64,000 bases of DNA, from assembly GCA_963744655.1 (NCBI GenBank), contig CAVUUJ010000002.1, positions 1,277,864 through 1,341,863 on the forward strand, given 5' to 3'. Positions within the stretch are counted from its first letter, which is position 1; every line of letters starts with the position of its first letter. Under the pieces are notes generated by a model. The model saw only the letters and a program-made list of their open reading frames with translations, was not told the origin of the DNA and made no database searches. Source of the DNA: an uncultured bacterium (GTDB lineage: Bacteria > Verrucomicrobiota > Kiritimatiellia > PWTM01). This document shows positions 898 through 26,268 of this stretch, one piece after another. Made by a program: the position numbers and the translations under genes.

Positions 898-2993
898 GCT
901 CGGGTCTCCTCGTGGGTGTCGGCGGCCCGCGGCGCGAGCCGCGGGACGGCCGGTTTCCGGTACAGCCCGGACGCGAGCGCCAGCAGGGCGGCCGAGCTCC
1001 AGGCGAATTCGTTGTGCCCGTTGGGATAGCCCGTCAGGCTGTCGTTGCACTCGCAGATGGACTCGGTGCGGCCGGCGGCCTCCAGGATGCGGTCGGCGAG
1101 GCGGTCGGCCTCGCGCCGGCGCCCGGCGCGGCAGAGCGCGCCGAGGAACCAGACGTCGCCGTGCAGCCACGTGCGCCCGCGCCAGTAGGCCTGTTGCACG
1201 AGCGCGCCCGGATGCTCCGGCGGCGCGTAAAGCAGGCCGCCGTGCCGGAACGTGGGGTGGGCGAGGTCGATGACCGGGAAGGGCAGCGGGGTGAGGAAGT
1301 GCTCCGGGCTCAACAGGTACCGGTCGCAGGTTTCCGCCGCGCGGCGGCGCGGGGCGAAGCCGGCGTAGACGGGAATGAAGCTGCCGAGCGAGGTCACGCC
1401 GTTGAACCGGCCGGAGGGCAGGTGCAGGTCCTGGTAGGCGCCGGCTTCGGCGTTCCAGAGGCGGCGGTTGATCGCGCCCCGCAGCCGCCGGGCCTCCGCG
1501 CGCCGGCGCGCGGCGTCGGCCCCGAGCCCCAGCGCGTCGGCCATCGCGGCGAGCGCGAGCAGTTCGAGCGCGACGAAGGCGTTGATGTCCGGCGCGGCGT
1601 GCTCGTCGGGCCGCATCGGGCCCGCCGGCCGCTCCGCCCAGGGGGCCTGCGGGCCGTAGGCGTCCGCGAGCCCCGGCGACCAGCGCAGCGCGTCGTCCAG
1701 CCCGTAGCAGTGGCCCCGCGGTGGCACGATCAGACCGTGCCCGCCGCGGAAGCCGAGCCACTTGTCCGCGTAACGGGACAGGGGCGCGTAGGCCCGCTCC
1801 ATCAGCTCGCGGTCGGGCTGGAGGGCGAGGTAGCGGACGAGCCCCCACGCGAGAATCGGCATCTGGTAGCCGGGCCGGTAGCTCCCGGCCTGGTAGGTGC
1901 ACGGCGGGGTGCCGTCCTCCGCGATGCCGCCGGTCAGCACCCGCGCGGCGCCGCGCGCCGTCTCGCGGTCGCCGGTCAGTCCCAGCCCGACCAGGGCGAG
2001 GGCGGTGTCCCAGAACCAGGTGGCGCAGACGCCGGTCTTGCCGGCATGCAGCGTCATGGCGGGCCCGCCGGCGCAGGTCCGGTCGCGGTAGCGCAGGGAC
2101 GAGAGCGTGCCCGCCGCCTTGCGGGCGAGGTCGCGATGCCGCGCCGCCTCGCCCTTCATCGGCGGTAGCCCCGCGTAGAGCGCCTCGTGCCGGTCGAGCA
2201 CGGCGGGCAGCCCCTCGTCCGCCGCCCCGCCGGCGGGCGCGTCGGGCCAGGCCTCGTCCTCGAAGGCGAACCGGACGAGGAAGTCGAAGGTCCTCGCGCC
2301 GCCGCCCTCGAGCGTCACGGCCTGCGGCGCGGAGGCGGCGCGGTTCCCGCCCGGGACGAGCGCGGGCACGCCGGGGCCGGGCTCGAGGAGCGCGCGCGCC
2401 CGGTAGGCGAGGTCCTGGATCTTGTGCCGGTTCGTGAAGACGAGCCCCCCGTCCCCGGGCGCGAACCCGCTGCCGGGGGTTGCGGCGCCCTCGGAGCGCC
2501 ACGCGAGCCGGGCCCGCACCGGGCCCCGTGCCGCGTTGCGGAGTTCGTAGCGGATGCGGAGGACGTCGGCGGCGGCGAACCACGCCAGGCAGCGCACGCG
2601 CACGGGCGGCGCGGGATCGGTGCCGTTCCAGCAGACGAACTCGTCCACGTGCGACCGGTAGTAGTTCATCGAGTTGTAGGCGAGCAGCCGGGCGTGCTGC
2701 GCCGGGTCCATCTCCGGGAAGGCGACGGAGAGGCCGAGCAGCTTGTCGAACAGCGGCCGGGCGTCGAGGGCGTAGACGCCCCAGCAGGTGTCCGGTCCCG
2801 CCCCGGTCCCGGTGCTCTTGAGGAACATGAAGCGACTGCCGGCGTCGCGGAAGGCGAAGGCGCCCGCGAAGGAGGCGTCCATGGTCTCCTCCGGCAGGTG
2901 CCGGCTGAAGCGGACGAGGTTGCGGGTGGAGGCGACGAGTGGCCAGCGGCCGTGCAGGTCAACGGGGATCATGAGGGAGCCTCTGCGGGTCAT
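894..2993 (-). CDS. (alpha/alpha)6-barrel glycoside hydrolase, GH63/MGH1/trehalase-like
   Basis: 699-aa ORF with balanced composition. Motifs WFWDTALALVGL, YQMPILAWG, YWRGRTWLHGDVWF and EFAWSSAALLAL. ATGA overlap with the upstream gene at 2990-2993. Alternative start at M 2972. Confidence 0.75.
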   Translation of the reverse strand: MTRRGSLMIPVDLHGRWPLVASTRNLVRFSRHLPEETMDASFAGAFAFRDAGSRFMFLKSTGTGAGPDTCWGVYALDARPLFDKLLGLSVAFPEMDPAQHARLLAYNSMNYYRSHVDEFVCWNGTDPAPPVRVRCLAWFAAADVLRIRYELRNAARGPVRARLAWRSEGAATPGSGFAPGDGGLVFTNRHKIQDLAYRARALLEPGPGVPALVPGGNRAASAPQAVTLEGGGARTFDFLVRFAFEDEAWPDAPAGGAADEGLPAVLDRHEALYAGLPPMKGEAARHRDLARKAAGTLSSLRYRDRTCAGGPAMTLHAGKTGVCATWFWDTALALVGLGLTGDRETARGAARVLTGGIAEDGTPPCTYQAGSYRPGYQMPILAWGLVRYLALQPDRELMERAYAPLSRYADKWLGFRGGHGLIVPPRGHCYGLDDALRWSPGLADAYGPQAPWAERPAGPMRPDEHAAPDINAFVALELLALAAMADALGLGADAARRRAEARRLRGAINRRLWNAEAGAYQDLHLPSGRFNGVTSLGSFIPVYAGFAPRRRAAETCDRYLLSPEHFLTPLPFPVIDLAHPTFRHGGLLYAPPEHPGALVQQAYWRGRTWLHGDVWFLGALCRAGRRREADRLADRILEAAGRTESICECNDSLTGYPNGHNEFAWSSAALLALASGLYRKPAVPRLAPRAADTHEETRA

Positions 2994-4696
2994 GGCGCGG
3001 CCGGCGCGGCGCCGGCGTCACGGTAGATTTCACGGACGAGGGTGTTTTCCGGGGCGTCGTACCAGCCGGTGTAGAACAGAATGTCGCCGCGCCGCACCGA
3101 GGCCGCCAGCTCCGCGAGCTTCCCCTCGGCGTCGGCGCGGCCGATGCGGTTGACGAAGAACGCTTCCGGATAGGTCCGCAGCGCGTACGGCGGCGGCGCG
3201 GTGAGCTTGTTGTGGTTGAGCTGGGAGTAGGGCGCCGCGTAGGCATAGCAGCGCAGGGTCTCCCACTCGGGCAGGACCAGGATGTCGGGGTGCTCGCGCA
3301 TGAGGTCGCGCAGGAGTTGCGCGTCGGGCAGCGCGGTGTAGCCCGCCGCGTCGGGAATCTTCACGGGGTCGCCGACCCATACGATGTCGGAGTCGAGGTA
3401 GAAGAGCGTGCAGCCCCACCGCTCCGTTGCGTGGCGAATCTTGTCGGAGAGGTTCTTGAACCGCGCCGTGCGATCGCGCCAGGCGACCTGTTCGACCTTG
3501 TCGTCGTAGGCGGGCCGCATCGGGCGCTGCGGCCGGACGCAGATGCCGGTGCGCAGGCCGGCCGCGCGGATCCGGTCGAAGAAGGCGTCCGCGAGCGGCT
3601 TCGCGTCCTCGCCCTCGCCGACCGGGAGCCGCATCTCCGGGGGCAGCGAGCGCGGGTCGCCGAGGAAGCTGATCATGTGCGGGTACTCCTGCCCCTCCAC
3701 GTCCCAGACGACGACGCCCTGCGCGTTCAGGCCGCCCGCGACGCGGACTATGCGGTCGGCGTAGGCGAGCACGTCCGTCTTGAAGGCTTCCCGGCCCTCG
3801 TCGGTGCCGGTGTCCAACTCCTTCGGCTTCTTCACGGAATGGTGCCAGCCGCGGGGGTTGCCCGGCCAGTCCTGCCCGGCGGAAGAGAGCATGCACATGC
3901 CGATGGGGCGCCGGTCGTCCCACGCGAGCTCGAAGGGATACGCTTCCGCAAACCGGCGGCAGAGGTCGGCGACCACGGCGTCGAGCTGCGCGTCGGCGGG
4001 CGCGGCGCGCAAGCTGATCCGCCAGCGGTCCGTGCCGCCCGGCGCGACGGGGCGGTCGATCCAGGGGAACTTCTTCGTCTCCAGCGGGTGGCGCCCGGTG
4101 AAGGCCAGCACGGGGACCTCGGTCTTCCCGGGCCCGCGCGGCTTGCCGAAGCCGGCCGCGAGCGGGCGGGCGACCTGTTCGGCGCAGACGGCGACGAGAC
4201 CACCGGGCCCGCGCGAGGCGACGACGCCGAGGCCCTGCAGGTTGTGGGCGAGGTCCGACTTCATGTAGAAGAGCCAGCTCAGGTTCTCGGTCTCGCGCTC
4301 CCCCTCCAGGCGCAGAACAAGCGGCTCGACGTAGAGCGCGACCAGTTCGCCGGGCGCGTCCTCCGCGACCTGGACGCTCACGTCCACCACGAGCCGGCCG
4401 TTCTCGATCGCGTACGCGGCGCCCACGCGGCCCCAGGGGAAGGCGAGCACGGGACGGCCCGGTTCGCCGCCGGTCGCGGCGTCAAGGTCCGCGGCGACGA
4501 CGTCGCCGTCGGGCTCCCGGAAGAACGCGCCGGTGACCCGGAACGTCCCGTCGGCCAGCAGGTCCCGCCCGCCCGCGCGCAGCGCGGACAGCCCGCCGGG
4601 GCCGGGCGCCGCCTCCAGGCCGGCAGCCCGCACTGCGGGGACGGCAAGGGCGAGACCGACGGCGAGCGCGGCGAGGCAGGGGCGTGTGTGCATCAT
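2990..4696 (-). CDS. secreted hypothetical protein, possibly a glycoside-hydrolase-like TIM barrel (family not assigned)
   Basis: 568-aa ORF. Signal peptide MMHTRPCLAALAVGLALAVPAVRAAG. AGGAG RBS about 8 nt upstream. The C-terminal half (GVVVWDVEGQEYPHMISFLGDP, LFYLDSDIVW, ILVLPEWE) looks enzyme-like. Confidence 0.65.
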   Translation of the reverse strand: MMHTRPCLAALAVGLALAVPAVRAAGLEAAPGPGGLSALRAGGRDLLADGTFRVTGAFFREPDGDVVAADLDAATGGEPGRPVLAFPWGRVGAAYAIENGRLVVDVSVQVAEDAPGELVALYVEPLVLRLEGERETENLSWLFYMKSDLAHNLQGLGVVASRGPGGLVAVCAEQVARPLAAGFGKPRGPGKTEVPVLAFTGRHPLETKKFPWIDRPVAPGGTDRWRISLRAAPADAQLDAVVADLCRRFAEAYPFELAWDDRRPIGMCMLSSAGQDWPGNPRGWHHSVKKPKELDTGTDEGREAFKTDVLAYADRIVRVAGGLNAQGVVVWDVEGQEYPHMISFLGDPRSLPPEMRLPVGEGEDAKPLADAFFDRIRAAGLRTGICVRPQRPMRPAYDDKVEQVAWRDRTARFKNLSDKIRHATERWGCTLFYLDSDIVWVGDPVKIPDAAGYTALPDAQLLRDLMREHPDILVLPEWETLRCYAYAAPYSQLNHNKLTAPPPYALRTYPEAFFVNRIGRADAEGKLAELAASVRRGDILFYTGWYDAPENTLVREIYRDAGAAPAAP

Positions 4697-4751: not shown

Positions 4752-7604
4752 TTATCCTATTTGCGGCCAGTACGTTATGTAGCAAATGGGGTCTGAAACG
4801 GCCCTTAGAGGACCGAAAGGGGGCCGGATTCGGCGTTCTAAGGGGGGCCGCCCGAGGGTTCCACCGGACGCCCGGCGCTTCTCGTGTTGATCAGAGGTCA
4901 TGTCTGATCGGCCCTGCTTCGCGTGCCTGCTTCGGATGGCACCGGACAGCGCCTCATGTTCCCTGCGTCCCTTCTTCCGCCCGCGCGGCGGCGGCTGCAC
5001 GCGGACCGTTCCGCTGCCCGGGCCGCGTGTCGCCCGCGCGGCTGCGGCACGTCCGGCGAGGTCCGGCATCGCCCAGCCGCCGCACACGCGCGCGTCCAGC
5101 TCCCGGGCCGTCGCCGCGAAGGCCGGGTCCGCGGCGAGGTTCGTCAGCTCGCCCGGGTCGTTCTCGAGGTCGTAGAGCTGGTGCCGGTCGCCCTCGCTGT
5201 GCACGTACTTCCATCGCCCGGTGCGGATCATGCGTTCGGCGGTGCCCGCCGAGTAGTACTCGCTGAAGACCGCGTCGGGCCCCGGCGCGGCGGGGTCGTC
5301 GAGGAAGGGCCGCAGCGAGCGCCCGTCGAGCCCGTCCGGCGCCGCCAGCCCGCAGGCGTCGGCGAAGGTCGGGAACAGGTCGACCAGGCCGGCGAGCTGC
5401 GGCCGGACCGCGCCGGCGGCGGGCTCGGCGGGGCGGCGCACCATCAGCGGCACGCGCACGGCGGTGTCGAAGAAGCAGTGCTTCTGCACCATGCCGTGGT
5501 TGAAGAGGTTCTCCCCGTGGTCGGAGGTGTAGACCACCAGCGTACGGCCGGCGAGTCCGAGCCGGTCGAGCGCGTCGAGCACGCGCCCCGCCTGCTCGTC
5601 CATGTAGCTCACGTTCGCGTAGTACGCGGCCATGGCGCAGCGCAGCTCGCGGTCGGTGTACGCCCCCGGCGTGAGGACGGGGAACTCGGGGTTGTCGGCG
5701 ATGGTGTCGGGGAAGCCGTCGCGGGGCTGCGCGAGGTCCGGCGGCAGCTCGATCGTGTCCGGGTCGTACAGGTCGTGGAAGCGCTTCGGCGCGTACATCT
5801 CGTTGTGCGGCTTCTCGAGGCCGACCCAGAGGAAGAACGGCGCGTCCCCGCGGCGCTCGAGGAAGTCGATCGAGCGGTCCGCCACCATGCGGTCGAGGAT
5901 CAGCTCCTCCTCCAGCTCGATGGGTGCGTTGGCCGGGTTGATGCCGTTGCGGGGCGGGGGGGCGTCGGGCGGACGGTACTTCGGCAGGTAGCTGGCGTAC
6001 TTGTAGAAGTTCTCCAGCCCGATCGTGTGCTGGTAGTCGTTCGCCATCGGCGTGTAGATGCGGAGCGCCCGCTCGTCGAAGCCGAGGTCGTTCCCGTCCG
6101 TCTCGCCGGCGACGTGCACCTTGCCGAAGGCGGCGGTGGCGTAGCCGGCCCCGCGGAACAGCTCCCCGAGGAGCGGCAGGCCCATGTCGCGGCGCATGTG
6201 CCCGTGCGTGAGCGTGCCGCAGCGGTGCACGTGGCGGCCGGTGACGAGCGCGGAGCGGCAGGGGCCGCAGAGCGGCGAGGCGGCGTAGGCGCGTTCGAAG
6301 CGCACGGAGGAGGCGGCGAGCCGGTCGAGGTTCGGCGTGCGCACCACGGGATGGCCCGCGCAGCCGAGCGCGTCGAACCGGTGCTGGTCCGAGATGAGGA
6401 AGAGGACGTTGAGGGGCGCAGCGGGCTTCACGCTTCGCGCCCCCGTCCCGTCGTACCCGCCCTCGTCCAGCACGGCGTCGTAGACGGCCTGCAGGTTCTC
6501 CCGCGGGACGAGCGGGGGCAGGTTGTTGCCCTCGCGCATGCCGAAGCGGCCGCCTTCCTTCACCCCGGAGCGGAGGATGTCGCGCGCCGCCGCGTAGCAG
6601 CGTGCGGGCGTGCCGCCGAGGAGCAGCTCGACCGGCGGTCCGCCGGTGATCGTCACCTCCGGCCCGAGTTCGCGCCGGAGCCGGCCGTGGTCGACGGGGA
6701 AACCGGTGTCGAACGCGTTGACGCCGAGCCGCTCGCTGAGGAACGGGAAGTGCCGGGTGGCGTCGCCGCAGAGGTGGATGCCGCGCCGGCGCGCCTCGCG
6801 CGGCGCGGTCCCCATCTCCTCGTACCACAGCTCCATCGCCGGCAGCACGACCTCCTCGAGCAGATCGTGCCCGATGAGCTGGATCGAGTCGTCCGCCAGC
6901 GAGGCCCACTCGTCGCGCTCCGGCCGGCCGGCGATGCGGCGCAGGGCCCGGGTGCGCAGGATGGCCGCCCGCGTGATGTGCAGCAGCAGCTCGCGCGCCT
7001 TCTCCGGCTCCTCGGCCAGCAGCAGGAAGATGTCGGGGCCGAACAGGATCGTCCCCACGGTCAGGGGGCCGTCGAAGACGACGACGAAGGGCACCACCTC
7101 GCCCGCGCGGCCGAGGTGGCGGAACCCCTCCGCCGCCGCGAGCAGCTCCTCGCGGTAGGCGAGCGTGCGGCGGATGAAGGGGTTCTCGAGCGGGCGCGAG
7201 AAGTCGCGGCGCAGGAAGTCGTCCACGTCGTCGAGCCCGAGGAACGGCGCCACGTCGGGCACCTGGCCGTCGTGGAAGGAGGGCTGCCCGCCGAAGTACT
7301 GCCCGTCGTAGGTGTTGTGCCATTCGACCGAGAAGGTCCACCGCTCCGGGAGTTCGGCGACGTGGTCGCTGGAGAGCGAGAGTTCCTCGGCGCAGAACCG
7401 GTCGAAGCGCGCCTGCATGGCGAAACAGGCCTCCGGCTCCCGCAGCATCTGCTCGTAGGTGACACCCTCGGGGTTCCACGCCGGGTTCAGCACGACGACG
7501 CGGCTGTTGCAGCCCCAGTTGAGCGGGACGCGGACCGGCCGCCCGGCCCGGAACGCCTCCATCACCGCGCGCTTCTCCCCGTCGGTCGGGATCGGGTTCT
7601 TCAC
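4752..7604 (-). CDS. fusion protein: N-terminal URO-D/MtaA-like (uroporphyrinogen-decarboxylase superfamily) domain plus C-terminal Cys-type sulfatase
   Basis: 950-aa ORF with a GTG start in a GTGA overlap at 7601-7604. N-terminal half: ADDSIQLIGHDLLEEVVLPAMELWYEE...RGIHLCGDATRHFPFL...GVNAFDTG. C-terminal half: NVLFLISDQHRFDALG, SPLCGPCRSALVTGR (CxPxR), VVYTSDHGENL, DLENDPGELTNL. The last ~100 aa are a basic low-complexity tail read through an intergenic repeat. Confidence 0.8.
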   Translation of the reverse strand: MKNPIPTDGEKRAVMEAFRAGRPVRVPLNWGCNSRVVVLNPAWNPEGVTYEQMLREPEACFAMQARFDRFCAEELSLSSDHVAELPERWTFSVEWHNTYDGQYFGGQPSFHDGQVPDVAPFLGLDDVDDFLRRDFSRPLENPFIRRTLAYREELLAAAEGFRHLGRAGEVVPFVVVFDGPLTVGTILFGPDIFLLLAEEPEKARELLLHITRAAILRTRALRRIAGRPERDEWASLADDSIQLIGHDLLEEVVLPAMELWYEEMGTAPREARRRGIHLCGDATRHFPFLSERLGVNAFDTGFPVDHGRLRRELGPEVTITGGPPVELLLGGTPARCYAAARDILRSGVKEGGRFGMREGNNLPPLVPRENLQAVYDAVLDEGGYDGTGARSVKPAAPLNVLFLISDQHRFDALGCAGHPVVRTPNLDRLAASSVRFERAYAASPLCGPCRSALVTGRHVHRCGTLTHGHMRRDMGLPLLGELFRGAGYATAAFGKVHVAGETDGNDLGFDERALRIYTPMANDYQHTIGLENFYKYASYLPKYRPPDAPPPRNGINPANAPIELEEELILDRMVADRSIDFLERRGDAPFFLWVGLEKPHNEMYAPKRFHDLYDPDTIELPPDLAQPRDGFPDTIADNPEFPVLTPGAYTDRELRCAMAAYYANVSYMDEQAGRVLDALDRLGLAGRTLVVYTSDHGENLFNHGMVQKHCFFDTAVRVPLMVRRPAEPAAGAVRPQLAGLVDLFPTFADACGLAAPDGLDGRSLRPFLDDPAAPGPDAVFSEYYSAGTAERMIRTGRWKYVHSEGDRHQLYDLENDPGELTNLAADPAFAATARELDARVCGGWAMPDLAGRAAAARATRGPGSGTVRVQPPPRGRKKGRREHEALSGAIRSRHAKQGRSDMTSDQHEKRRASGGTLGRPPLERRIRPPFGPLRAVSDPICYITYWPQIG

Positions 7605-10600
7605 GGCGCCGCCTCCACGATCACCTGCCGGTAGCCGTGCCGGCCGACGGGGACGGTGATCGTGTCCCCGCCGTCATGCGAAAGGGGCGCCTCGTCGTCG
7701 GACGACCAGCCCTCCTTGCCGCTGTCGGTGTCCGCCTCCGCGTCCGTCACGCGCCAGCGGGCGGGTGCGGGCAGGCCGAGGGCCTTCGCGTCGAGGCGCA
7801 CGTGCGCGTCGACCGCTTCACCGTAGTTGACCACCGCCACGAGCACCTTGCCCGGCCGCTTCCAGGCGACGAGGTGCACGTCCGGGGCGTCGCAGGCGAG
7901 GCCCGCGTCCCCGCGCCAGGGGGCGACGAAGACCACGTCGTCCGCGTCGATGCCGAAGCGCCGCCGCCCGATCCACACGGGCCGGTTGAGGCCGTTCGCG
8001 TTGGAGGAAGGCAGGATCTCGTAGAGGAGGCAGGCCCCGGTGTAGGCGCGCATCACCTCCGTCTTGCGGCGGGGGTCCCACCGGCCCTGGTACTCGTGCA
8101 GGAACTAGACCGCCAGCCCCCAGGCCGGGCCGTAGGCGAGGCGCAGGCGGTCCGGCGTCCAGAAGTCCATGAAGTCCTTGCCCATCTCCGGGTAGATGAC
8201 GTGGTGCTCGCCGTCGAGCGCGATGTCGGCGGCGCCGAGCCAGGGGCCGATGAAGTTGTTCGTCGTGTGCAGCACGAAGGTGCTGCGCCCGTTCGCCTCG
8301 TGGAACGCCGCCCGCATGCGCAGCAGGAGGCGGCGCACGGCGAAGACGTTGTAGGTGGGCTGTGCACGGCCGTCGGGCAGCCGGTAGCCGCGGCCGGCCT
8401 CGAGGTTGGCGCAGGCCTGCGGGCGGGAGTTGTCCAGGTAGAAGCCGTCGATGCCGCAGGACTCGGCCCACGTGTAGGCGTGGTGGACGATGAAGTCGAC
8501 GAGCGTGTCGTCGAACGCCGAGCCCGTCGCTGACCGAGGTGCGCCACTGGTCGCCGAAGTACGCCACCTCCGGCGCGAAGCGGGCGGCGATGCGCTTCCA
8601 TTCGATGTAGGGCACCGCGGTCGAGCGGCGGGTTGCACCCTCGCCGAAGATGTAGCTGTTGGCCGTTGCGTGCTGCTTCTCCACCAACTCGCGGGACGCC
8701 GCCTCGTCCAGGGGGAAGGGGATGTTGCTCCAGATCAGGTGGCCGCCCTTGGCCTTGATGCCCTGGTAGTCCCTGAACGTGTCGCCGGTCCACCAGCTCT
8801 CCGCGCGCCACCCCTTGCGGACGGGCTTCACGGGCGTGGCCTGGAAGGCGAAGACGAGCGTCCGCGGGCCGTCGATGACGGCCGGGCGGCCGACGAGGTG
8901 GAAGACGAGATCGACGCTTCCCGGGCCGTCGCGCCGCAGCTCGAAGGCGGGCACCCCGTCCGCCTGCACCCAGCCCTCGTCGCTGTCCGCGTACCAGCAC
9001 AGGCCCGCGTCCGGGCCGCCGACGTACACGTAGGGCACGAAGGACCCGACGGCCATCGGGTTGCCGCTGACCTTCCGGCAGTCCCAGAGCCGGCCTTCGC
9101 CCTCCTTCGGGATCGCGCCGTAGTCGAAGCCGTAGCGGATGCCCCGGCCCGCCGCGTGGAACGCGTCGGCCTGCGAGGGGTCGAACGGCACGACCAGGCG
9201 CAGGGCGCCGACCTCGACCGGCTCCGGGCCCGGGTCGAGGGTCAGCTCGTAGCGGAGCATGCCGTCGAACTCGGTGGTGACGGTGGATCGCACCTGCAGC
9301 CCGCCGAGCGTCGCCCCGGCGGCGTGGACGGCGCGGTGCTCCGCCGACGCGACGCGGCGCAGCGAAACCGGCTCGGCCGGCGCGGCCGTCCCGCCGGGCG
9401 CTTCCGCCTCGAGCCGCACCGGCCCGGCCAGCAGCCGGCGGCCCTGGGAGACCACCTGCTCCGGCAGGCCCGCGGCGCCGAGGCGGACCTCGCGGCCCCA
9501 CACGGCGACGGACGTGTCCGAGGCCCGCACCGGGGTCCACGGGTCGATCACGCGCTCGATGTCGCCGTGGGGGGTCTCCCACCAGGTGAAGGCCTCGGCG
9601 GGGTCCTTCTTGCTGAACGTGCTCTCCCGTTCCAGGGCGACGCGGCCGTCCGCGTCGCGCGCGACGAGGCGCGCGGTGTACTCGCCCGACGGCAGGCCCG
9701 GCAGCGGCAGCAGCCCCTCGACGTAGGCCAGGTCGTCGAGCGCCAGGTCCGCCGCCGCCAGCTCGCGGCCGTCCGCGTCGACGACGGAGGCGCGGAACGC
9801 CGCCAGCGTGCCGCGCGCGTCGTAGTTGATGAAATCGCCCGCGACGCGCAGGTAGTCGCGCACGGGGTTGAAGACCAGCTTCAGGCCGACCTCGTCGCCG
9901 CGGTCGTCGAGACGCGGTTCGACCTTCGCGCTGTCGAGTTCACGCAGCGAGGCCCAATCGGCGAGCACCGCGCCGCCGTCGGCCGTGGTGACGGTGATCC
10001 GGTACAGCCCCTCGCCCGGCGGGACCGCCGCCGGGTCGTCGGGCCCGGCAACGGCCGCGCCGCCCGGAAGGTCGAGCATGCCCGAGCGGGCGGCGCCCTC
10101 CGCCTCCAGCGTCCAGCGCAGGGCCGCGGGCTCCTTCGACCAGGCGCCGAGCCGGAACCCGAAAGCGCCGGAGGCGGGATCGCCCACCGCGTCCAGGTGC
10201 ACCGCCGGTGCGGTGCGGGAGAGGACGCAGCGAGAGTGGCTGTCGAGCACGGTGAAGGAACTCGTGCCCTCGATGGAGTTCTGCTCCCACGGCCGCTTGA
10301 AGTTGCGCGCGATGAGCAGCGTCAGCTCCTGCCCGTCCTCGAACGGCCCGTCGAGAAACAGCGAGGCGCGCGGGATAGCCATCTCCCACTCCCACACGTT
10401 GTCGTCCGTGAGGCGGTTGACCGGCTCCCACCCCGACGACCAGCCGATGCGGCTGTTGCCCACGGCGGGCAGGTGCAGGACGTCGTAGCGCGCGCCGGCG
10501 AAGTTGGCGAGGAACTGGAAGAAACAGGGCTGCCCGTCCTCCGTGCGCGTGCCGACGTCGAGGAAGATCTCGTAGCTGTCGTCGAAGACCACGTTCCGTT

Positions 10601-10919
10601 CCGGCATGCGCCGGCGCAGGGCCTGCATCGGCCGCTCGCCGGGGCGCAGCGGGCTCTGCATGGCGACGTAGAGGTGCTCCTCGTCCCAGCAGAGGCGGAA
10701 GGTGGCCTGGCGGACACTCACCTGTCCGCGCTTCGCGCGCAGGCCGCGGACGGCGAGCGCGCCGCGCCATTCGTCGGCGCCGACCGCCCCGTCGATGACC
10801 GGCTTCTCGAGGGCATAGGGGAGGGCGAAGACGGGGCGCCGGTACGCGTCCGGCGCCGCCTCCTGCGCGACGGCTCCCGCGGCAATCAGGAAGAGCGGAA
10901 CGAGGGCGATACGCTTCAT
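7601..10919 (-). pseudogene. giant-paralog family member A (CBM9/DOMON-like N-terminus); disrupted by one frameshift and one in-frame TAG
   Basis: Start MKRIALVPLFLIAAGAVAQ (ATG 10919, AGGAG RBS). The reading frame changes near 8520 (..YFGDQWRTSVSDG | SAFDDTLVDFIVHHAYTW..). An in-frame TAG at 8105-8107 sits between ..GPAWGLAV and FLHEYQGRWDP... The homologous sequence continues to the stop at 7601. Confidence 0.75.
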
Positions 10920-11094
10920 GGGGAATCTCCTTCCGGTCGCCTTGCGCATGAACGGTGCCGCGTTCATGAAGAAGGCAGGCTAGCGGTGTCGCGGGGGGGT
11001 GTCAGGTTCTTTGTTGTCCTGATTGATGCGCTCCGGGAGAGATCAAACCGTTCCCGGTATGCCGCGCGGGAAGGCATGGCGGTCGGTCGGGGGG

Positions 11095-11413: not shown

Positions 11414-12904
11414 TCAGTAGGCGTGCAGGCGGAAGCGGACGGCGGTGACGGTGTCGCCGAACAGGGCGCCGGTGCCGTGGGCGGTCTCGTCGCCGTTGAG
11501 CCGGCGGGCAGCGCGCCAGGCGCCGTCCTCGAACCGGCCCTCGTCGAGCCAGAGCAGCTCGGCGGTCGCGCCCGGGCCGCCGGTCCGCTCGAACGTGAAG
11601 ACGATTCGCTGCCCCACGGCGGTGAAGGTGTCGTCGCCCTCGGCCAGCACCAGCGCGGCGCCGGGCACGGCGGTCTCCCCCGTCGGACCCCGGGTGCGGG
11701 CCCGGAGGCGCCAGCCGTCGAGCTCTGCGTCCCACGTCTCCTCGTCCGCCTGCTGCAGGAAGCCGGCGAGCCGCCCGGCGCCGCGCGCGGCGGCCAGCCG
11801 CGCGCCCATGGGGCGGAGCAGGCGGTAGACCGCTCCGAGCGGCGCGTCCGCGGGGAGGTCCTCGACGCCGAAGGGCGCGAAGCCGAGCGCCTCGTGGCGG
11901 CCGAGGGCGTAGAGGGCGCGCGCGCCGGCGCCGGCGTCGGCCCTGGACTCCGGGATCAGCAGCGGGTTGCCCAGCCGCGTGTAGGCGGCGCAGTAGCCGC
12001 GGAAGTCGGGGTCGTAGATGTCCGGGGCGACGAAGTCGATGCGCGGCGCCGCGGCCCGCCACACGGGCAGCATGCGCGCGGTCGGCCCGCCGCTGGGGTA
12101 GTCGCCGGCCTGGTAGCCCGGGCCGCGGTCGAGCCAGGCGTTGACGCCCATCGGCAGGTCCCACGCCGCCCGGCCCGCGGCCGCCACCGCGTCCACGTAG
12201 CGGGCGATGTGCCAGGCCATGAAGACCTCGGCGGCGTCCTCCCCGAAGACCGCCTCCCAGCCGCCGGCCCCGCGCAGGGGTCGCAGGGGTTCGGCGAAAC
12301 CGTCGTCCGCCTCCTCGAGCGCGCGGAGCAGCCCGGGCGGCACGTCGCCGCGGAAGGCGGCTTCCGCCGCGGGCGAGAAATCGCGCGGGGTGCCGAGGAT
12401 GCCGACCTCGTTTTCCACCTGCACGAACGGAATCGCCCCGGCCGCCCCCGGCCGGCCGCGCAGGTGCGCCATCACCGCGGCGAAGGCGCGGGCGTCGGAC
12501 TCCCGCGTGGCGGCCTCGAAGCAGGAGAGGGTCCACAGCGCCCTGCCCCCGCGGTCCCGCGCGCGGGGGAACCGCCCGCCGCCGGTCTTCACCCACGCGG
12601 GGGCGTAGCAGGAGATGGCGTTCTTGAAGGCGCCGAACCAGAGGGGGACGAAGCGGAGCCCGCGCTCGCGGCAGAGGTCCAGGGCCGTGTCCGCGGACGC
12701 GAAGTCGAAGGCGCCTTCCTCCGGCTCGAGGAGTTCCCAGTACAGCGGCACGAAGGCCGCGTCGCCGCCGAGCGCGGCGAGCCGGTCGAGCGCGGAAGCG
12801 AGGGTCCCGCGCGAGGCGGCGGCGGAGTTGTGCACCTCCCCGCCGAGCAGCGGCGGCAGCGCGGCCAGGGCCGGCGGCAGCGCGGGGGCGCGGGACGCGG
12901 TCAC
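11414..12904 (-). CDS. GH35-like beta-galactosidase-type hydrolase (GH35 N-domain plus DUF5597-type architecture)
   Basis: GTG start in a GTGA overlap at 12901-12904. Motifs LLGGEVHNSAAAS, FVPLYWELLEPEEGAFDF, LRFVPLWFGAFKNAISCYAPAWVKTGGGRFPRA and FVQVENEVG. The longer track ORF (to 14104) is a shadow extension. Confidence 0.75.
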   Translation of the reverse strand: MTASRAPALPPALAALPPLLGGEVHNSAAASRGTLASALDRLAALGGDAAFVPLYWELLEPEEGAFDFASADTALDLCRERGLRFVPLWFGAFKNAISCYAPAWVKTGGGRFPRARDRGGRALWTLSCFEAATRESDARAFAAVMAHLRGRPGAAGAIPFVQVENEVGILGTPRDFSPAAEAAFRGDVPPGLLRALEEADDGFAEPLRPLRGAGGWEAVFGEDAAEVFMAWHIARYVDAVAAAGRAAWDLPMGVNAWLDRGPGYQAGDYPSGGPTARMLPVWRAAAPRIDFVAPDIYDPDFRGYCAAYTRLGNPLLIPESRADAGAGARALYALGRHEALGFAPFGVEDLPADAPLGAVYRLLRPMGARLAAARGAGRLAGFLQQADEETWDAELDGWRLRARTRGPTGETAVPGAALVLAEGDDTFTAVGQRIVFTFERTGGPGATAELLWLDEGRFEDGAWRAARRLNGDETAHGTGALFGDTVTAVRFRLHAY

Positions 12905-14034
12905 GCCTTCACCCGGGCCAGGTCCGGCCCGCCGCGGCCGAGGCCGAGCACCTCGTGGCGGAGGCGCAGGTAGGCGAGGTAGTTGTCGAACGACACGTCC
13001 ATCGGGCAGCAGTGGTCGAGCGTCGGGAAGTACCCGCCGCGCTCCACGGCCGGGCGGACGCGTTCCAGCTCCGCCCGGATCGCGCCGGGGCCGCCGGTCA
13101 GCCGGTGCTTGTGGATGTTGCCCCACCACAGGGCGCGCTCGCCGTAGCGCGCCTGCAGCTCGTTGACGTCCACGCCGGCCTGCGCCTCCAGGGGCCAGAA
13201 CAGCTTCACGCCGCCGTCGAGCCACGCGTCGAGCAGCGGCCGGATGTCGCCGTCGGAGTCGACCGAGACCACGTCGTAACCGTAGCCGCGCGCGAGGTCG
13301 GCGACGCGGCGGTAGCGCGGCACGACCAGCTCCCGGAAATGCGCGGGATTCATGATCGGCCCGTTCTTGAAGCAGATGTCCTCCCAGAAATGCACACCCT
13401 CGGCGGGCGCGCCGCGTTCGCCGAAGATGCGCACCTGCCGCTCGGCGGCCCGGGCGTGGGTCTCGATCATGTCCTCGAGCCACGCCGGGTCGTCGTAGGC
13501 CATCATGGCGAAGACGTTGAACCCGAGCAGGTCGCGCGGCCGGCCCGCGAGGCTGCCCGCGTCGATCCAGACCGGATGCCCCGCGGCGCGGGCGCGCCCG
13601 GCGACCGCCGCCGCCACCGGGTCGTCCGGGCCGGGCAGCGGCGCATCGACGTCCATCCACGCCTTGTAGCGCTCCCACTCGTCGCGGTCGCGGACGGCGG
13701 GCCGGACCTCGTGCGGGATGGTCTTGTGCGAACCCTTGTTGTCCTGGATGACCGACCCGTCCGCGCGCCGCGTGGTCACGGTGGTTTCCGTCTCCTCGAG
13801 CACGTCCGTCTCGAACAGCGGCGTCCGGGGCGGCGCGTACGAGAGGCGCAGGGGGTAGCGGTCGAGCCCGAACGCCTCGCACCACGCGTCGTAATCGCGG
13901 GGATCGAGGTCGGGACTCAGCCCCTCGCCCTGCCACCGCTCGTAGGCGGCGAGCAGCGGCCCGTGGTCGATGTTCGGCGGCGGCACGCCGGGCTCCCGGC
14001 GGACAAAACGACGGTACTGCTCGCGCGGATTCAC
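12901..14034 (-). CDS. URO-D-superfamily protein (uroporphyrinogen decarboxylase-like TIM barrel), DSDGD subtype
   Basis: 377-aa ORF with balanced composition. Motifs FKNGPIMNPAHFRELVVPRYRRVADL, VVSVDSDGDIRPLLDAWLDGGVKLFWPLE and FPTLDHCCPMDV. Alignable with the 25195..26268 product. Confidence 0.75.
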   Translation of the reverse strand: MNPREQYRRFVRREPGVPPPNIDHGPLLAAYERWQGEGLSPDLDPRDYDAWCEAFGLDRYPLRLSYAPPRTPLFETDVLEETETTVTTRRADGSVIQDNKGSHKTIPHEVRPAVRDRDEWERYKAWMDVDAPLPGPDDPVAAAVAGRARAAGHPVWIDAGSLAGRPRDLLGFNVFAMMAYDDPAWLEDMIETHARAAERQVRIFGERGAPAEGVHFWEDICFKNGPIMNPAHFRELVVPRYRRVADLARGYGYDVVSVDSDGDIRPLLDAWLDGGVKLFWPLEAQAGVDVNELQARYGERALWWGNIHKHRLTGGPGAIRAELERVRPAVERGGYFPTLDHCCPMDVSFDNYLAYLRLRHEVLGLGRGGPDLARVKA

Positions 14035-16517: not shown

Positions 16518-18094
16518 GCGGCGCGCGCGGAAAGGCGAAGGAGCCGGGCGCGGCGCGCGGGGGCGCGAACCTGCTGGTCGTCTGCACGGACCAGCAGCAC
16601 CCGCTGCTCTCCGGCTTCCGCGGCCACCCGTTCGTGGAGACGCCCCACCTCGACCGGCTGGCCGCGCAGGGCGCGCAGTTCACGCGCGCGTACTGTACCA
16701 ACCCCATCTGCACCCCCAGCCGCATGAGCCTGCTGACCGGGCGCTACACGCACGAGATCGGCGTGCCGAACAACGGCTTCCCGCTCGATCCCGCGCTCCC
16801 CACCTGGCCCCGTCTGCTGGACCGCGCGGGCATCGAGAGCACGATGCTCGGCAAGATGGACCTGTGCGGCGACTACCAGGACGGGGGGTTCACGCACCAC
16901 CGGATCATCCGGCGCCGGGCCGCGCACCCGGCGATGACCGCGGAGCCGCCCTACCGCATGACGGCGCCGCTCCGCGAACGGATGCCCGCGGCCAGCCGCT
17001 CGTGGCGCCCCGTGTCGCGCGCCCTGCGCCACGCGGGGCCGCGCACCCACCGCATCCTCTGCCGCGAGAAGTTCGAGGCGAACGAGATCGACGGCGAGAA
17101 CGACGATTTCCTGGGCAACTACGACCACGACGTCATCGTCACCGACTGGGCCGTGGACGCCCTGAAGGAGAAGGGCGCGGCGCATCGCGCGGGCGGGGCG
17201 GCGCCCTGGGCGCTCTACGTCGGCCTGATCCTGCCGCACGAGCCGTTCACCATCCCCGCCGCGTACTACGACCGCTACTACCCCGACCGCGTCGCCCGGC
17301 CGGTCGACGCCCGCTTCCCCAACCCGGACCTGCACCCCGCCCTGCGGTTCCTGCAGCGGGCCCACGGCACGGGCACGCCGACGGAGGACGACCTGCGCCG
17401 CGCGCTGGCCGCGTACTACGGCATGGTGACCTGCGCCGACGAGCTGCTCGGCCGGATCCTCGGCGAGCTCGAGCGGCAGGGCCTGGCGGAGGACACGCTG
17501 GTGGTCTTCACCTCCGACCACGGCGAGTCGCTCGGCGAGCACGGGCTCTTCTTCAAGAAGTGCAGCTACGAGGGCTCCGCCGGCGTCCCGCTCGTCCTGC
17601 GCGGCCCCGGCGTGCCCGCCGGGGCGCGGGTCGACGCGCCGGTGAGCCTGGTCGACCTGCCGCCCACCCTGCTCCGCGCCGCCGGGTTGACGCCGGGGCC
17701 GGGCCTGCCCGGCATGGACCTGCGGGCCGTCGCCGCCGGCGCGCCGCCGCCGCGCGATTTCGCCTTCGCCGAGTACCATGGCTACTTCATGCGGCACGAC
17801 TGGTTCATGACCGTGCACGACGGCATGAAGTACACGTGGTACAGCGACGGCGAGCGGCCCACGCTGTTCGACCTCGAGCGCGACCCGCACGAGCTGCGCG
17901 ACGTGGCCGCCGACCCCGCCTACACGGACCGGCTACGCGCCTGCCGAGAGCGGCTGCTGGCCGTGTGCGATCCCGGGGCCGAAAGCCGCCGGGCCCGGGA
18001 CCTGCTCGGGCTGATCGGCCCGGACGGCGAGGACTACCTGTGCGGGGAGGCGACGGCGCGCGGGTCAACGCCTGACGGGAGGAAGACGCCATGA
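16514..18094 (+). CDS. Cys-type sulfatase with no obvious signal peptide
   Basis: GTG start in a GTGA overlap at 16514-16517. Motifs NLLVVCTDQQH, NPICTPSRMSLLTGR (CxPxR), VVFTSDHGESLGEHG and FDLERDPHELRD. Confidence 0.8.
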   Translation: MSGARGKAKEPGAARGGANLLVVCTDQQHPLLSGFRGHPFVETPHLDRLAAQGAQFTRAYCTNPICTPSRMSLLTGRYTHEIGVPNNGFPLDPALPTWPRLLDRAGIESTMLGKMDLCGDYQDGGFTHHRIIRRRAAHPAMTAEPPYRMTAPLRERMPAASRSWRPVSRALRHAGPRTHRILCREKFEANEIDGENDDFLGNYDHDVIVTDWAVDALKEKGAAHRAGGAAPWALYVGLILPHEPFTIPAAYYDRYYPDRVARPVDARFPNPDLHPALRFLQRAHGTGTPTEDDLRRALAAYYGMVTCADELLGRILGELERQGLAEDTLVVFTSDHGESLGEHGLFFKKCSYEGSAGVPLVLRGPGVPAGARVDAPVSLVDLPPTLLRAAGLTPGPGLPGMDLRAVAAGAPPPRDFAFAEYHGYFMRHDWFMTVHDGMKYTWYSDGERPTLFDLERDPHELRDVAADPAYTDRLRACRERLLAVCDPGAESRRARDLLGLIGPDGEDYLCGEATARGSTPDGRKTP

Positions 18095-20134: not shown

Positions 20135-20902
20135 ATGAAGAAGCGAGCAATCAGTGGCCTGATCTGCGTCGGCCTGTTGCTGGTCGCATTGTCGGCCGTG
20201 AGCGTTCATGCGGCGGTCATAACGGGGTTCACGACAGCAGAAGGCTATGACTTCGGAACAACCTACTGGAAGCATCCGAAGACGTTGACCAGCTACACGA
20301 CGGCCAACGGGACCGTCGATGGGACGAACTTCCACGCGGCCGACACGGCGACCGCCCATGCTAACTACTACTACGGCGAGCAGAGCACCGATCCGGGCAG
20401 CTCCGCGGGGCTGCTCGAGAACCTGGACGTCATGACCGGGTACGTCAACATAGCGGGGCAGACGAACTACGACTTCATGTTCAACGCGCCCTACCGCTTC
20501 AGCAGCGCGACGGGCAACCCCGGTAACGATGACGACTTCTTCGTGTTCGAGATATCGCCTAGCGATAGTCCCGACAACGTGACGCTGCAGGCTCTGGACT
20601 CCAGTTCCTCGCCCCTCGGCTCCGCGGTGTTCCTCAACCAGACGGCCATCCCCGGTGACGTGATCCGCTTCCGCGCCCCGAATCCCGCCCAGACTGACAT
20701 GAGCGGGTGGGGGTTCGATTACGACGATTTCGGAGTGGCGGATGCGACCCAGATCGCCGGCCTGCGCATCTACGATAGCCGCTCCGGCGGCGGCTTCGAT
20801 CCGGGCGTCGTAGGCATCAACAATGCCATCCCCGAGCCGGGGACGCTCGGCCTGCTCGGCGTGGCGGTGGCGGCCATGCTGCTCCGCCGGCGCCGTGCGT
20901 AA
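20135..20902 (+). CDS. PEP-CTERM sorting-domain protein
   Basis: 255-aa ORF. Signal peptide MKKRAISGLICVGLLLVALSAVSVHA. C-terminus IPEPGTLGLLGVAVAAMLLRRRRA*. RGGAG-like RBS. Confidence 0.85.
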   Translation: MKKRAISGLICVGLLLVALSAVSVHAAVITGFTTAEGYDFGTTYWKHPKTLTSYTTANGTVDGTNFHAADTATAHANYYYGEQSTDPGSSAGLLENLDVMTGYVNIAGQTNYDFMFNAPYRFSSATGNPGNDDDFFVFEISPSDSPDNVTLQALDSSSSPLGSAVFLNQTAIPGDVIRFRAPNPAQTDMSGWGFDYDDFGVADATQIAGLRIYDSRSGGGFDPGVVGINNAIPEPGTLGLLGVAVAAMLLRRRRA

Positions 20903-21050: not shown

Positions 21051-21628
21051 TCCTCATCCATGCGTTACGCGGACAATGGGGGCTGAAATGGCCCTTGGAG
21101 CGTTTCTGAGGGCGGGTTCCGGCGTCTCCAAGGCGGTTTGACCGAGAAGGCGCCCGGGGCGGCCGGGCTCGACAGGCTGCTCTCCTTCACCTGCCCACGT
21201 ACGGAAGAGGCGGGCAGGGCGTTCGGCGCCATTCCGGCAGCGGGGTGCCGCCGTGGCCGGGAAGGTCAGGTCTCTCGGATTCCGCCCTTCGCAGGAGCGT
21301 CGCGTTCCGGGCCGCGGCGGCCCGGGTCCGGTGAGCCCGTCGGACCCGGGCACCGGGTGCGGCCGGTCCCCTTCGCCCGCCGTATCGTGCCCCCCGTTCC
21401 GCGCGGCGCCGGCCGCTGCCGGCCGCGGACCCGCAACACCGGGGCCGGCGGCTTTCGGCCCGGGGGCGGTCGGTGGTTGACGTGACCCGCGGGCCGGTGT
21501 TCTGCTTCGCCCGCACGGAGACGGAGACGCGGGGGAGGGCGGGCCTCCCCGGCGAGGCGTGGATCCGGGCCCGGGTGACCCGGCAGGCGCCTCACCTCGC
21601 GCCGATGTGCACAACAGGAGATCGTCCC

Positions 21629-25141: not shown

Positions 25142-25194
25142 ACGCGCCGGGGCCGACCGGCGCGTCCCCCTGGCGCCGGAGAAAGGATGTGTGC

Positions 25195-26268
25195 ATGAAC
25201 GTCGCCGAACGCTACCTGGCTTTCATGAGGTACGAGACGGTGGACCGGCCGCCGCTCGTCCTGCCCGGCGGGATCTTTCCGGTGACCCGGCGGCGCTGGG
25301 AGCGGGAAGGGCTGCCCGCGGGGGTCGACCTCAACGAGTTCTTCGGCGGCGAGCCCATGCCCGTCCGGCCGCTGGCCCTCGACACCCTGCTCCGCCCGCC
25401 CTTCGAGGAAGAGATCCTGGAGGAAACCGGCGAGTTCGTCGTGAAGATCGACCAGCACGGCGTGAAGTGCCGGAACTTCAAGGACGAGACCTCGATGTCC
25501 GAGCATCTCGAGTATCCGGTCAAGGGACCGGAGGACCTGGCCTGGCTGCGCCGGCGTCTCGACCCCGCCGCGCCCGGCCGCATCGCGCCCGACTGGCTTG
25601 AACGGGCGCGGGAGAGCCGGGCGCGCGGGGTGCTGACACAGATCAACGGCGGCATGTACTTCGCCTTCCTCAACGAGCACATGGGCACGGAGGCGGCCCT
25701 CGTGGCCTACTTCGACACCCCCGAACTCGTTCACGAGGTCAACGAGCTGCAGTGCCGCCTCTGCGAGCAGGCCATGAACACGGCGCTGCCCCGCTTCAAG
25801 CCCGACCGCATCGGCTACCACGAGGACATGGCCTACAAGAACGGCAGCATGATCTCGCCGGCCATGTTCCGCGAGTTCATGACGCCCTACTACAAGCGGG
25901 TGACGTCGATCACCTCGCGGCATGGCCTCGACCATCACCTGATGGACAGCGACGGCGATATCCGCGAGCTCATCCCGCTCTGGCTCGAGTGCGGGATCAA
26001 CGCCTTCGCCCCGCTCGAAGTGGCCGCCGGCATGGACGTCGTGGCGCTGCGCGAGGAATACGGCCCGGCGATCAGGATGGAGGGCGGGTTCGACAAGCGC
26101 ATCCTCGCCTCGGACAAGCCCTCCATCCGGCGCGAGTTCGAGCGGCTGGCGCCGGTAATCGACGGCGGCGGCTACCTGCTCAGTTGCGACCACACCGTGC
26201 CGCACAACGTGCCGCTGGAGAACTACGCCTACCTCGTGGAACTGATGAAGGTCCATTTCGGCATGTGA
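25195..26268 (+). CDS. URO-D-superfamily protein, DSDGD subtype
   Basis: ATG 25195 with a GGAGAAAGGA RBS. Motifs YKNGSMISPAMFREFMTPYYKRVTSI, HHLMDSDGDIRELIPLWLECGINAFAPLE and LLSCDHTVPHNV. Confidence 0.8.
   Translation: MNVAERYLAFMRYETVDRPPLVLPGGIFPVTRRRWEREGLPAGVDLNEFFGGEPMPVRPLALDTLLRPPFEEEILEETGEFVVKIDQHGVKCRNFKDETSMSEHLEYPVKGPEDLAWLRRRLDPAAPGRIAPDWLERARESRARGVLTQINGGMYFAFLNEHMGTEAALVAYFDTPELVHEVNELQCRLCEQAMNTALPRFKPDRIGYHEDMAYKNGSMISPAMFREFMTPYYKRVTSITSRHGLDHHLMDSDGDIRELIPLWLECGINAFAPLEVAAGMDVVALREEYGPAIRMEGGFDKRILASDKPSIRREFERLAPVIDGGGYLLSCDHTVPHNVPLENYAYLVELMKVHFGM

Follow-up and report, generated by a model that had tools for sequence, protein, structure and literature searches.

A 64,000-nucleotide stretch of bacterial DNA, here called the window, contains a 950-codon open reading frame in which a URO-D-like module is joined to a sulfatase. 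We conclude from its sequence, with a probability of about 0.8, that this frame represents two ordinary neighbouring genes merged by one extra G at their overlap, and not an evolved enzyme.

The assembled frame occupies positions 4752–7604 of the minus strand, running from a GTG start at 7604 to a stop at 4752 as one open frame of 950 codons plus the stop, and the plus-strand translation of the same interval contains many stops. An earlier note on this DNA had described a single frame with two modules; the frame is present, and all of the motifs quoted for its two halves (LLEEVVLPAMELWYEE, RGIHLCGDATRHFPFL, GVNAFDTG, LFLISDQH, CGPCR and TSDHGE) are found in the minus-strand translation. In the Pfam scan that had been suggested as a check, both PF01208 (URO-D) and PF00884 (Sulfatase) were matched above the gathering score. 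GC3 is 0.93–1.00 from codon ~6 to codon ~830 and, since it is unbroken at the junction between the modules, there is no frame change at that point in the sequence as assembled; in the tail of the frame it falls to 0.5–0.7. Both catalytic cores keep all of their invariant residues. The uninterrupted frame, the coding-type GC3 and the intact cores speak for a genuine, selected bifunctional enzyme, the two modules of which would process one sulfated or modified sugar in successive steps, a reading that we regard as unlikely.

The URO-D-like module (codons 1–385, 6450–7604, minus strand) is a full-length member of a family of standalone proteins of ~385 aa. Its placement in the URO-D superfamily agrees with a PF01208 match at aa 159–378 (44.6 bits versus a gathering score of 23.9) and with a Foldseek search of its AF2 model (pLDDT 94.7), which matched UROD and MtaA with E ~1e-13 and TM 0.61–0.70. 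The extent of the module suggested by Pfam needs adjusting, since the match covers profile positions 124–343 only and just 220 aa, and the N-terminal half is the whole ~385-aa family protein. We base the fold assignment, that of a predicted URO-D-superfamily barrel, on AF2 and Foldseek because searches of PDB sequences gave no significant match: phmmer with the N-terminal half returned chance matches only, with no UROD among them, and the best match of the family profile, MtaA (4AY7), was non-significant (E 0.34).

Sequence conservation within the family is strong. The invariant motifs of the module are H277-x-C279-G-D, FDTGFPVD (298–305) and REGNNLPP (357–364), with H277 and C279 being invariant across the 33 aligned members, and the conserved sequence stops at GGY384. 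At 7 of 121 highly conserved columns the N-terminal half deviates from its relatives, within the family range of 0–12. The earlier note had placed the H-x-C-G where MtaA-type enzymes have zinc ligands. This stands in so far as H277-x-C279 is invariant and aligns with the HICG of 4AY7, in an overall profile alignment of E 0.34, but the third zinc cysteine of the MtaA type appears not to be conserved in the family; C336 is frequent without being invariant. The family, represented by 420 loci in species-representative genomes, is large, highly conserved and uncharacterised; it occurs widely among phyla that degrade polysaccharides and has a loose link to sugar catabolism. The URO-D-like enzyme would act on a substrate derived from sugar by means of a metal site of the His-Cys(-carboxylate?) type. 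The second and third URO-D-like genes of the window belong to another subfamily, in which DSDGD replaces HLCGD, and similarity between the N-terminal half and the second of these genes is undetectable.

The sulfatase core, read in its native frame, spans codons 392–850 (5054–6431, minus strand). PF00884 matches aa 399–752 with 158.7 bits against a threshold of 25 and covers profile positions 2–300 of 301, while SGSH_C matches aa 702–839 with 70 bits. In S1 sulfatases a C/S-x-P-x-R motif is the site that is converted to formylglycine. Here the motif is C446-G-P-C-R450, of which C446 and R450 are invariant among the aligned homologues, as are D406 in LFLISDQH (SDQH, 405–408) and D695 in TSDHGE (693–698); both of the latter blocks align with 4UPL. 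These motifs identify the C-terminal half as a predicted Cys-type S1 formylglycine sulfatase. Its orthologues have no signal peptide, and no FGE or anSME domain was found in the subset of window ORFs that was scanned. The enzyme would use the formylglycine nucleophile to hydrolyse sulfate esters on small sugars or oligosaccharides that have been imported.

The two modules meet at codons 386–397 (GTGARSVKPAAP, 6414–6449, minus strand), a segment that contains GGG at 6447–6449 and GGGGG at 6440–6444. Within it lies an apparent relic of a GTGA overlap (6428–6431), composed of the in-frame GTG codon 392 (6431–6429) and a TGA in the +1 frame (6430–6428). Natively, the GTG probably starts the sulfatase and the TGA probably ends the URO-D-like gene, to judge from several features of the sequence. 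Sulfatase orthologues begin 1–7 residues ahead of the N in the (L)N(V/I)(V/L/I)F strand, and the N-terminus of one of them, MKPRPNVVF in locus L009, compares with MKPAAPLNVLF when the window sulfatase is read from GTG392. The GGGGG run lies 8 nt 5′ of this GTG and resembles a Shine-Dalgarno sequence; genes of this organism show GGAGG-type sites. The +1 frame is open from codon 349 up to the TGA that overlaps GTG392. Residues 381–392 have low pLDDT in the AF2 model. NTGA overlaps also join three other gene pairs of the window, at 7601–7604, 2990–2993 and 18091–18094.

When one G is deleted from the G-rich stretch in a reconstruction, the frame resolves into proteins of 391 and 491 aa, both within the lengths of their families, and an extra base is likely to lie somewhere in codons 385–391. 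In favour of a relic, the 950 codons hold no more than 8 NTGA sites in frame and 7 homopolymer runs of at least 5. Taken individually, the relic signals are modest: by our own estimate the chance of one falling in the linker is ~7% for an in-frame NTGA and ~5% for a G5 run. The linker consists of the tail of the URO-D-like gene and the start region of the sulfatase and still retains both the GTGA and the G run, which argues against a selected bifunctional enzyme.

The C-terminus of the frame is disturbed as well. Two single-base insertions at 5033–5053 (minus strand), one at ~5051–5053 and one in GGG at 5033–5035, split the conserved motif VP(K/Q)(R/P)RGDTRPGQR over the other two frames. GDTRPGQR is present in all seven of the sulfatase orthologues compared, and the window encodes it only in another frame. 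Since this conserved C-terminus is out of frame, the last ~100 codons (~852–950, 4752–5050, minus strand), where GC3 decays, are non-native sequence; removal of both insertions would let the native frame end at the TGA at 4954–4956. The sulfatase had been described as complete, which holds for the core motifs CxPxR, SDQH and SDHGE but not for the native C-terminus, out of frame from ~codon 851.

Four more lesions break three other genes of the window. The GH123_N-like gene immediately upstream (GH123a) carries a +1 frameshift at ~8513–8525 and a TAG at 8105–8107, as confirmed against an orthologue; a GG>GGG insertion is found at ~52664; and a 5-nt tandem duplication at 43161–43170 truncates the conserved C-terminus of a sulfatase. 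All six indels detected are insertions. What looked like an in-frame stop at 62805 is where a DUF1559-like prepilin gene normally ends, and long overlapping ORFs (for example 15372/15917 and 30086/30622) are first-start extensions typical of high GC and not frameshifts. With approximately one frame-disrupting lesion per 10 kb, every other claim about gene structure drawn from this stretch has to be tempered. A frameshifted C-terminus and a broken upstream gene are unlike what either strong selection for a bifunctional enzyme or error-free sequence would be expected to leave.

Searches for other fusions point in the same direction. No second protein combining URO-D and sulfatase was found in a search of 5.8 billion clusters; the window protein alone pairs PF01208 with PF00884. 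Exhaustive phmmer against 1.84 billion representatives likewise gave no two-domain match among the best 150, below which a fusion with both halves under ~30% identity could rank; the ten long matches checked are tandem sulfatases. The best 120 of the 635 relatives of the N-terminal half are standalone proteins (342–424 aa, PF01208 only, 86–99% query coverage), with the exception of one 583-aa partial duplication. At all 80 genome loci fetched the URO-D-like gene is unfused. The lack of a second example among billions of proteins and 80 loci weighs against a selected bifunctional enzyme; the architecture, for which the earlier note had proposed a database search, turned up only once and so is not a conserved fusion. 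Its statement that no characterised enzyme is known to have this combination is borne out, both by the sequence searches and by the literature, where no relevant paper was found that connects URO-D to sulfatases, to polysaccharide utilization loci or to PVC bacteria.

A sulfatase lies directly downstream of the URO-D-like gene on the same strand in 2 of the 80 loci, both from Planctomycetes MAGs (L069 and L091) and both with non-orthologous sulfatases; in one further locus the opposite strand carries a sulfatase gene 59 nt downstream, and in 8 of 80 there is one within 10 kb. Such numbers are close to the chance expectation for genomes rich in sulfatases. The few relatives with a sulfatase just downstream count in favour of a bifunctional enzyme, as does the location of the frame in a dense glycan/sulfatase region with three URO-D-superfamily genes among glycoside hydrolases and sulfatases, and given L069 and L091 the pairing of the two genes may not be entirely accidental. 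Against this, the fetched loci that hold orthologous sulfatases (L001–L011) contain no URO-D-like gene. The URO-D-like family has no conserved neighbourhood, the commonest neighbour families each occurring in only 11 of the 80 loci. Its neighbours are glycoside hydrolases, sulfatases and sugar oxidoreductases, with no haem-pathway context, and one relative is near MTHFR and MttB-type genes. The nearest relatives in the collections searched are 63–69% identical, and these collections contain neither the window's genome nor any near relative of it.

The surroundings of the frame also bear on whether two unrelated genes were united by an assembly join or rearrangement, and not by a point indel. 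Such a chimeric contig could be suspected from the fact that the best relatives of the two halves are in different MAGs and that the two genes are usually not neighbours in relatives. However, GC, skew and GC3 are unchanged at the join, there is no repeat or mobile-element boundary, and the genes form a coherent operon that has NTGA overlaps to either side of the join. Upstream, the stop of the GH123_N-like gene (7601–10967, minus strand) overlaps the URO-D-like start as GTGA (7601–7604). Downstream lies a gene for a 568-aa protein with no Pfam match (2990–4696, minus strand) and a strong AGGAAGAGGAG ribosome-binding site, followed with an ATGA overlap by an MGH1-like glycoside hydrolase gene (894–2993). 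Moreover, the position of the join coincides exactly with a stop/start overlap that has a ribosome-binding-like site, which is unexpected for a random breakpoint. We therefore consider a chimera highly improbable.

In the merged-gene reading that we prefer, two adjacent and translationally coupled genes would form part of a cytoplasmic glycan-processing operon, the first encoding a URO-D-superfamily barrel (~391 aa) that belongs to an uncharacterised family and the second a cytoplasmic S1 sulfatase of the Cys type, ~491 aa long. In the native state the two genes would share a GTGA, the TGA of which ends the first while its GTG starts the second. One extra base in GGG 6447–6449 or GGGGG 6440–6444 would bring the end of the URO-D-like gene into frame with the sulfatase, so that the native stop is skipped and one 950-codon ORF results, and the two further insertions near 5050 and 5034 would derail the sulfatase C-terminus. 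We infer that the fusion was caused by the extra base. This base may be an indel introduced in sequencing or assembly, or else a true mutation of recent date; we rate the two about equally likely, with a slight lean towards error, since every one of the six indels detected is an insertion. A true mutation would yield a two-domain protein with a 16-residue linker, both cores intact and a scrambled sulfatase C-terminus, and the internal G run and GTG could still permit separate synthesis of the sulfatase. The fused protein shows no sign of inactivity in its sequence. It seems to us unlikely that the extra G exists in the organism and that a working URO-D-like::sulfatase protein of ~100 kDa is made.

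The earlier note had taken the covalent link as a clue to function. We do not uphold this, given that the fusion is a singleton with a GTGA relic and a G run at its join and that similar lesions occur in the same ORF and in three other genes; the fusion itself is of little importance and a Rosetta-stone inference from it is unsafe. In a high-GC genome, alternative frames stay open for hundreds of codons, and a single-base indel at an NTGA stop/start overlap can create a convincing ‘novel domain architecture’. If the working protein were real after all, the fusion together with L069 and L091 would be the first functional clue to the URO-D-like family, and would hint that, in PVC bacteria that degrade glycans, sulfated sugars undergo a metal-dependent step in the cytoplasm, for instance the loss of an O-alkyl group or another substituent. 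The remaining interest lies in the URO-D-like family itself, with its HxC metal-site signature and no corrinoid partner, the biochemical assignment of which would be useful to the glycan-degradation field.

Compared with known systems, the N-terminal half shares its (beta/alpha)8 fold with MtaA/MT2-type methylcobamide:CoM methyltransferases (4AY7/4AY8; Foldseek E 6e-13, TM 0.61–0.70) but is only 15–16% identical to MtaA and scores below the cut-offs of the MtaA-type family models (PRK06252, 31.4 versus 244; TIGR01463, 20.2 versus 235.4; MtaA_Meth, 10.2 versus 400). At the position aligned with the second Cys of MtaA (alignment E 0.34) it has the invariant Asn-Asn N360/N361 instead, with Glu358 just before. 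Unlike MtaA-type systems, the window offers no B12-binding or corrinoid protein or MT1 partner among its scanned ORFs, nor is there one among the recurrent neighbours in the 80 loci. UroD-superfamily methyltransferases have a His-Cys-Cys zinc site, and O-demethylases use His and carboxylates (PMC10418091). HemE/UROD (1R3Y, 1URO) gave the top structural matches (E 2e-13, TM 0.62–0.68) at 17–18% identity; UROD, however, is not a metalloenzyme (PMC539065), while an invariant HxC marks the URO-D-like family, and no HemE model was among the NCBIfam matches.

The best PDB matches of the sulfatase half are the cytoplasmic S1 sulfatases 4UPL and 4UPI, BetC (6FNY) and the arylsulfatase 6HHM (E 1e-49 to 1e-44). 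NCBIfam arylsulfatase and choline-sulfatase models are matched at full length with 259 and 239 bits, below every equivalog cut-off (481 and 433 bits), and hence we assign no substrate. True orthologues have the C-terminal motif in frame, whereas that of the window sulfatase is out of frame. Natural fusions of a sulfatase to a second catalytic module do exist, as in tandem sulfatases and the PDB entry 6HR5, named as a GH78 rhamnosidase/sulfatase, and this precedent favours a bifunctional enzyme. However, tandem sulfatases recur in many independent clusters, whereas the URO-D and sulfatase combination turned up once, with a frameshift signature at the join.

The frame of 950 codons described in the earlier note is present in the assembly, where it runs on the minus strand from the GTG at 7604 to the stop at 4752, and every motif quoted there is found in its translation. 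The Pfam check confirmed both modules, with matches to URO-D (aa 159-378, 44.6 bits versus a gathering score of 23.9), Sulfatase (aa 399-752, 158.7 bits) and SGSH_C (aa 702-839). Among NCBIfam models, arylsulfatase and choline sulfatase matched over their full length below threshold, and MtaA-type methyltransferases matched weakly (31 bits versus a cut-off of 244). The proposed architecture search yielded no second URO-D plus sulfatase protein. The PF01208 and PF00884 pairing occurred only in the window's own protein in a search of 5.8 billion clusters, and an exhaustive phmmer search of 1.84 billion representatives listed sulfatases and URO-D-like proteins separately, with no two-domain match listed; the ten long matches that we inspected were tandem sulfatases. 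The URO-D-like family is encoded at 420 loci in species-representative genomes, and none of the 80 fetched carried a fused gene. Likewise, no URO-D-like gene lay within reach of the orthologous sulfatases in the fetched loci L001-L011.

At the junction between the modules, the conserved part of the URO-D-like family stops at GGY384 and sulfatase homology begins at L398-N399, with orthologues starting 1-7 residues ahead of that asparagine; the intervening DNA reads GAC GGG ACG GGG GCG CGA AGC GTG AAG CCC. Codon 392 is GTG and the next base is A, and thus the +1 frame, open from codon 349, closes exactly at the TGA of a GTGA stop/start overlap. Such NTGA overlaps are found at three further gene pairs of the window, including the one with the gene directly upstream. 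The GTG is preceded, 8 nt upstream, by a run of GGGGG, and other genes of the window have GGAGG-type sites at this same spacing. Deleting one G from this run in silico gives a 391-aa URO-D-like protein ending in ...GGYDGTGREA and a separate sulfatase starting MKPAAPLNVLF, similar to the MKPRPNVVF of the orthologue in locus L009. Third-position GC (0.93-1.00 from the ORF start to about codon 830) shows no dip at the junction. Both in-frame NTGA sites (eight) and homopolymers of at least five (seven) are rare in the 950 codons; that the two should meet by chance in a 7-codon slot is unlikely, although each element alone is only suggestive. The simplest account, to which we give a probability of roughly 0.8, is that two coupled genes, one URO-D-like and one sulfatase, would have been merged by a single inserted base.

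The sulfatase had been described as complete and Cys-type. It is indeed a Cys-type S1 sulfatase, and its nearest counterparts are the cytoplasmic enzymes 4UPL/4UPI and choline sulfatases, but its native C-terminal tail is out of frame. Its true orthologues, which share 55-71% identity with it, are encoded by standalone genes of planctomycete, lentisphaeral and verrucomicrobial MAGs; one of them, P0003 (L001 5426-7036, 55% identical), has C-I-T-T-R at the formylglycine CxPxR position, without the proline. All seven orthologues compared end in ...MPD(L/T)xxxP(K/R)RRGD(T/A)RPGQ(R/K) followed by 3-9 residues. In the window each of the three frames carries a piece of this motif: the ORF frame reads MPDLAG, another frame VPQPRG and the last one DTRPGQR. 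Two single-base insertions, one at ~5051-5053 and one in the GGG at 5033-5035, would explain the split. Removing both in silico gives a 491-aa sulfatase with its stop at TGA 4954-4956. Because these insertions shift the frame, the assembled ORF ends in ~100 codons that do not encode native protein, in agreement with the decay of third-position GC to 0.5-0.7 over this stretch.

Other genes of the window are also disrupted. The GH123_N-like gene at 7601-10967 (minus strand) has a +1 shift at ~8513-8525 and an in-frame TAG at 8105-8107, both confirmed against its L005 orthologue (42-49% identical). A large gene without a Pfam match (51018-54400, minus) is split by a GG>GGG single-base insertion at ~52663-52665 (~52664), and its L005 homologue aligns over both frames. 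In the sulfatase at 43141-44748 (minus), a 5-nt tandem duplication (CAGGG CAGGG, 43161-43170) shifts the frame, and the conserved C-terminus (...AVRQGKWKY...ELFDLE...) lies past the present stop in another frame. With those of the 950-codon ORF included, the 64 kb contain about seven lesions; the remaining frame plot is clean. That the base at the junction is an assembly error, which we hold slightly likelier than not to be the case, is favoured by the insertion-only pattern (6/6 indels) and by the fact that large glycoside-hydrolase genes are disrupted in an apparent free-living glycan degrader. Real mutation and decay, given a little under half of the probability, are favoured by the TAG, which is a substitution, by the duplication of 5 nt and by the way the lesions cluster in a single operon, although this clustering is partly ascertainment because this operon was examined most closely. 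On either view the architecture is not a conserved one, and the suggestion that a covalent link implies a shared substrate fails. As an evolved domain architecture the fusion is most likely not real, and each module belongs, as an ordinary member, to a known superfamily.

By gene content the window is a glycan-degradation region, with five sulfatases, three GH123_N-like genes, GH42-type, GH116 and MGH1-like hydrolases, a SASA esterase, two sugar-type regulators and three URO-D-superfamily genes. The first of these (6429-7604, minus) is directly downstream of the GH123_N-like gene 10967>7601, the second (12901-14034, minus) directly upstream of a GH42/DUF5597 gene, and the third (25150-26268, plus) directly downstream of the GH123_N-like gene 21473-25141; the latter two belong to a different subfamily, with DSDGD instead of HLCGD. 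The window also encodes two PEP-CTERM proteins (20135-20902, plus; 44523-45362, minus) and a prepilin-type protein (62805-~63400, minus) with an N-terminal methylation motif and ...FGDGHV..., DUF1559-like by inspection, and its best matches include Tepidisphaerales MAGs; taken together, these features suggest that it probably derives from a member of Planctomycetota. Neither module shows a signal peptide by eye, which suggests that both are probably cytoplasmic and act on imported small sugars.

Two of the 80 loci have a sulfatase gene immediately after the URO-D-like gene and on its strand; in a third, the sulfatase begins 59 nt downstream but on the other strand, and eight loci have one within 10 kb. 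This is about as expected for sulfatase-rich genomes and adds little. In the two same-strand cases, both planctomycete MAGs (L069 9926-13212 and L091 9929-12986), the sulfatases are non-orthologous to the window's (23-28% identical over their length); the gap is 70 nt in L091, and in L069 sulfatase homology starts ~85 nt past the URO-D-like stop. Recurrent neighbours, each in at most 14% of loci, are URO-D paralogues (among the commonest, 11/80), Gfo/Idh/MocA oxidoreductases, sulfatases, PhyH dioxygenases, AGE epimerases, GH4 and aldo-keto reductases, with no corrinoid protein among them. URO-D-like genes of differing subfamilies often stand in tandem, 40-440 nt apart (L043, L063, L068, L089, L093). 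The closest relative, P0121 (63% identical; L014 486-4548), adjoins an MTHFR+DUF5981 gene and an MttB-family fragment, a hint of one-carbon or methyl-transfer context and the sole one met.

What remains of interest is the uncharacterised URO-D-like family and its occurrence in glycan loci. The N-terminal half is a complete member of this large, tightly conserved family of standalone proteins of ~385 aa, with 635 matches in total, 47-63% identity among those listed, and coverage of residues ~5 to ~385. One member, P0240 (583 aa), has an apparent N-terminal partial duplication of the barrel's C-terminal half, including a second HLCGDATRHFP...FDTGFPVD block. An alignment of 33 members has 45 invariant columns, among them H277, C279, G280, FDTGFP (298-303), GGP (321-323) and E358/N360/N361; the window's protein differs from the consensus in 7 of the 121 highly conserved columns, a number inside the family range. 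The barrel fold proposed earlier is borne out by the above-threshold Pfam match and by an AF2 model built from the family alignment (pLDDT 94.7), for which Foldseek returned UROD and MtaA (E ~1e-13, TM 0.6-0.7, 15-18% identity). In a non-significant profile alignment HLCG lies opposite the HICG of MtaA, whereas the downstream MtaA cysteine is opposite Asn. S-methyltransferases of the UroD superfamily have a His-Cys-Cys zinc site, its cysteines being replaced by carboxylates in the O-demethylases (PMC10418091), and UROD itself is metal-free (PMC539065). As a working view, we infer that the family may carry out a metal-dependent transformation of a sugar derivative, using His-Cys and a probable carboxylate; it is neither a canonical corrinoid methyltransferase nor HemE.
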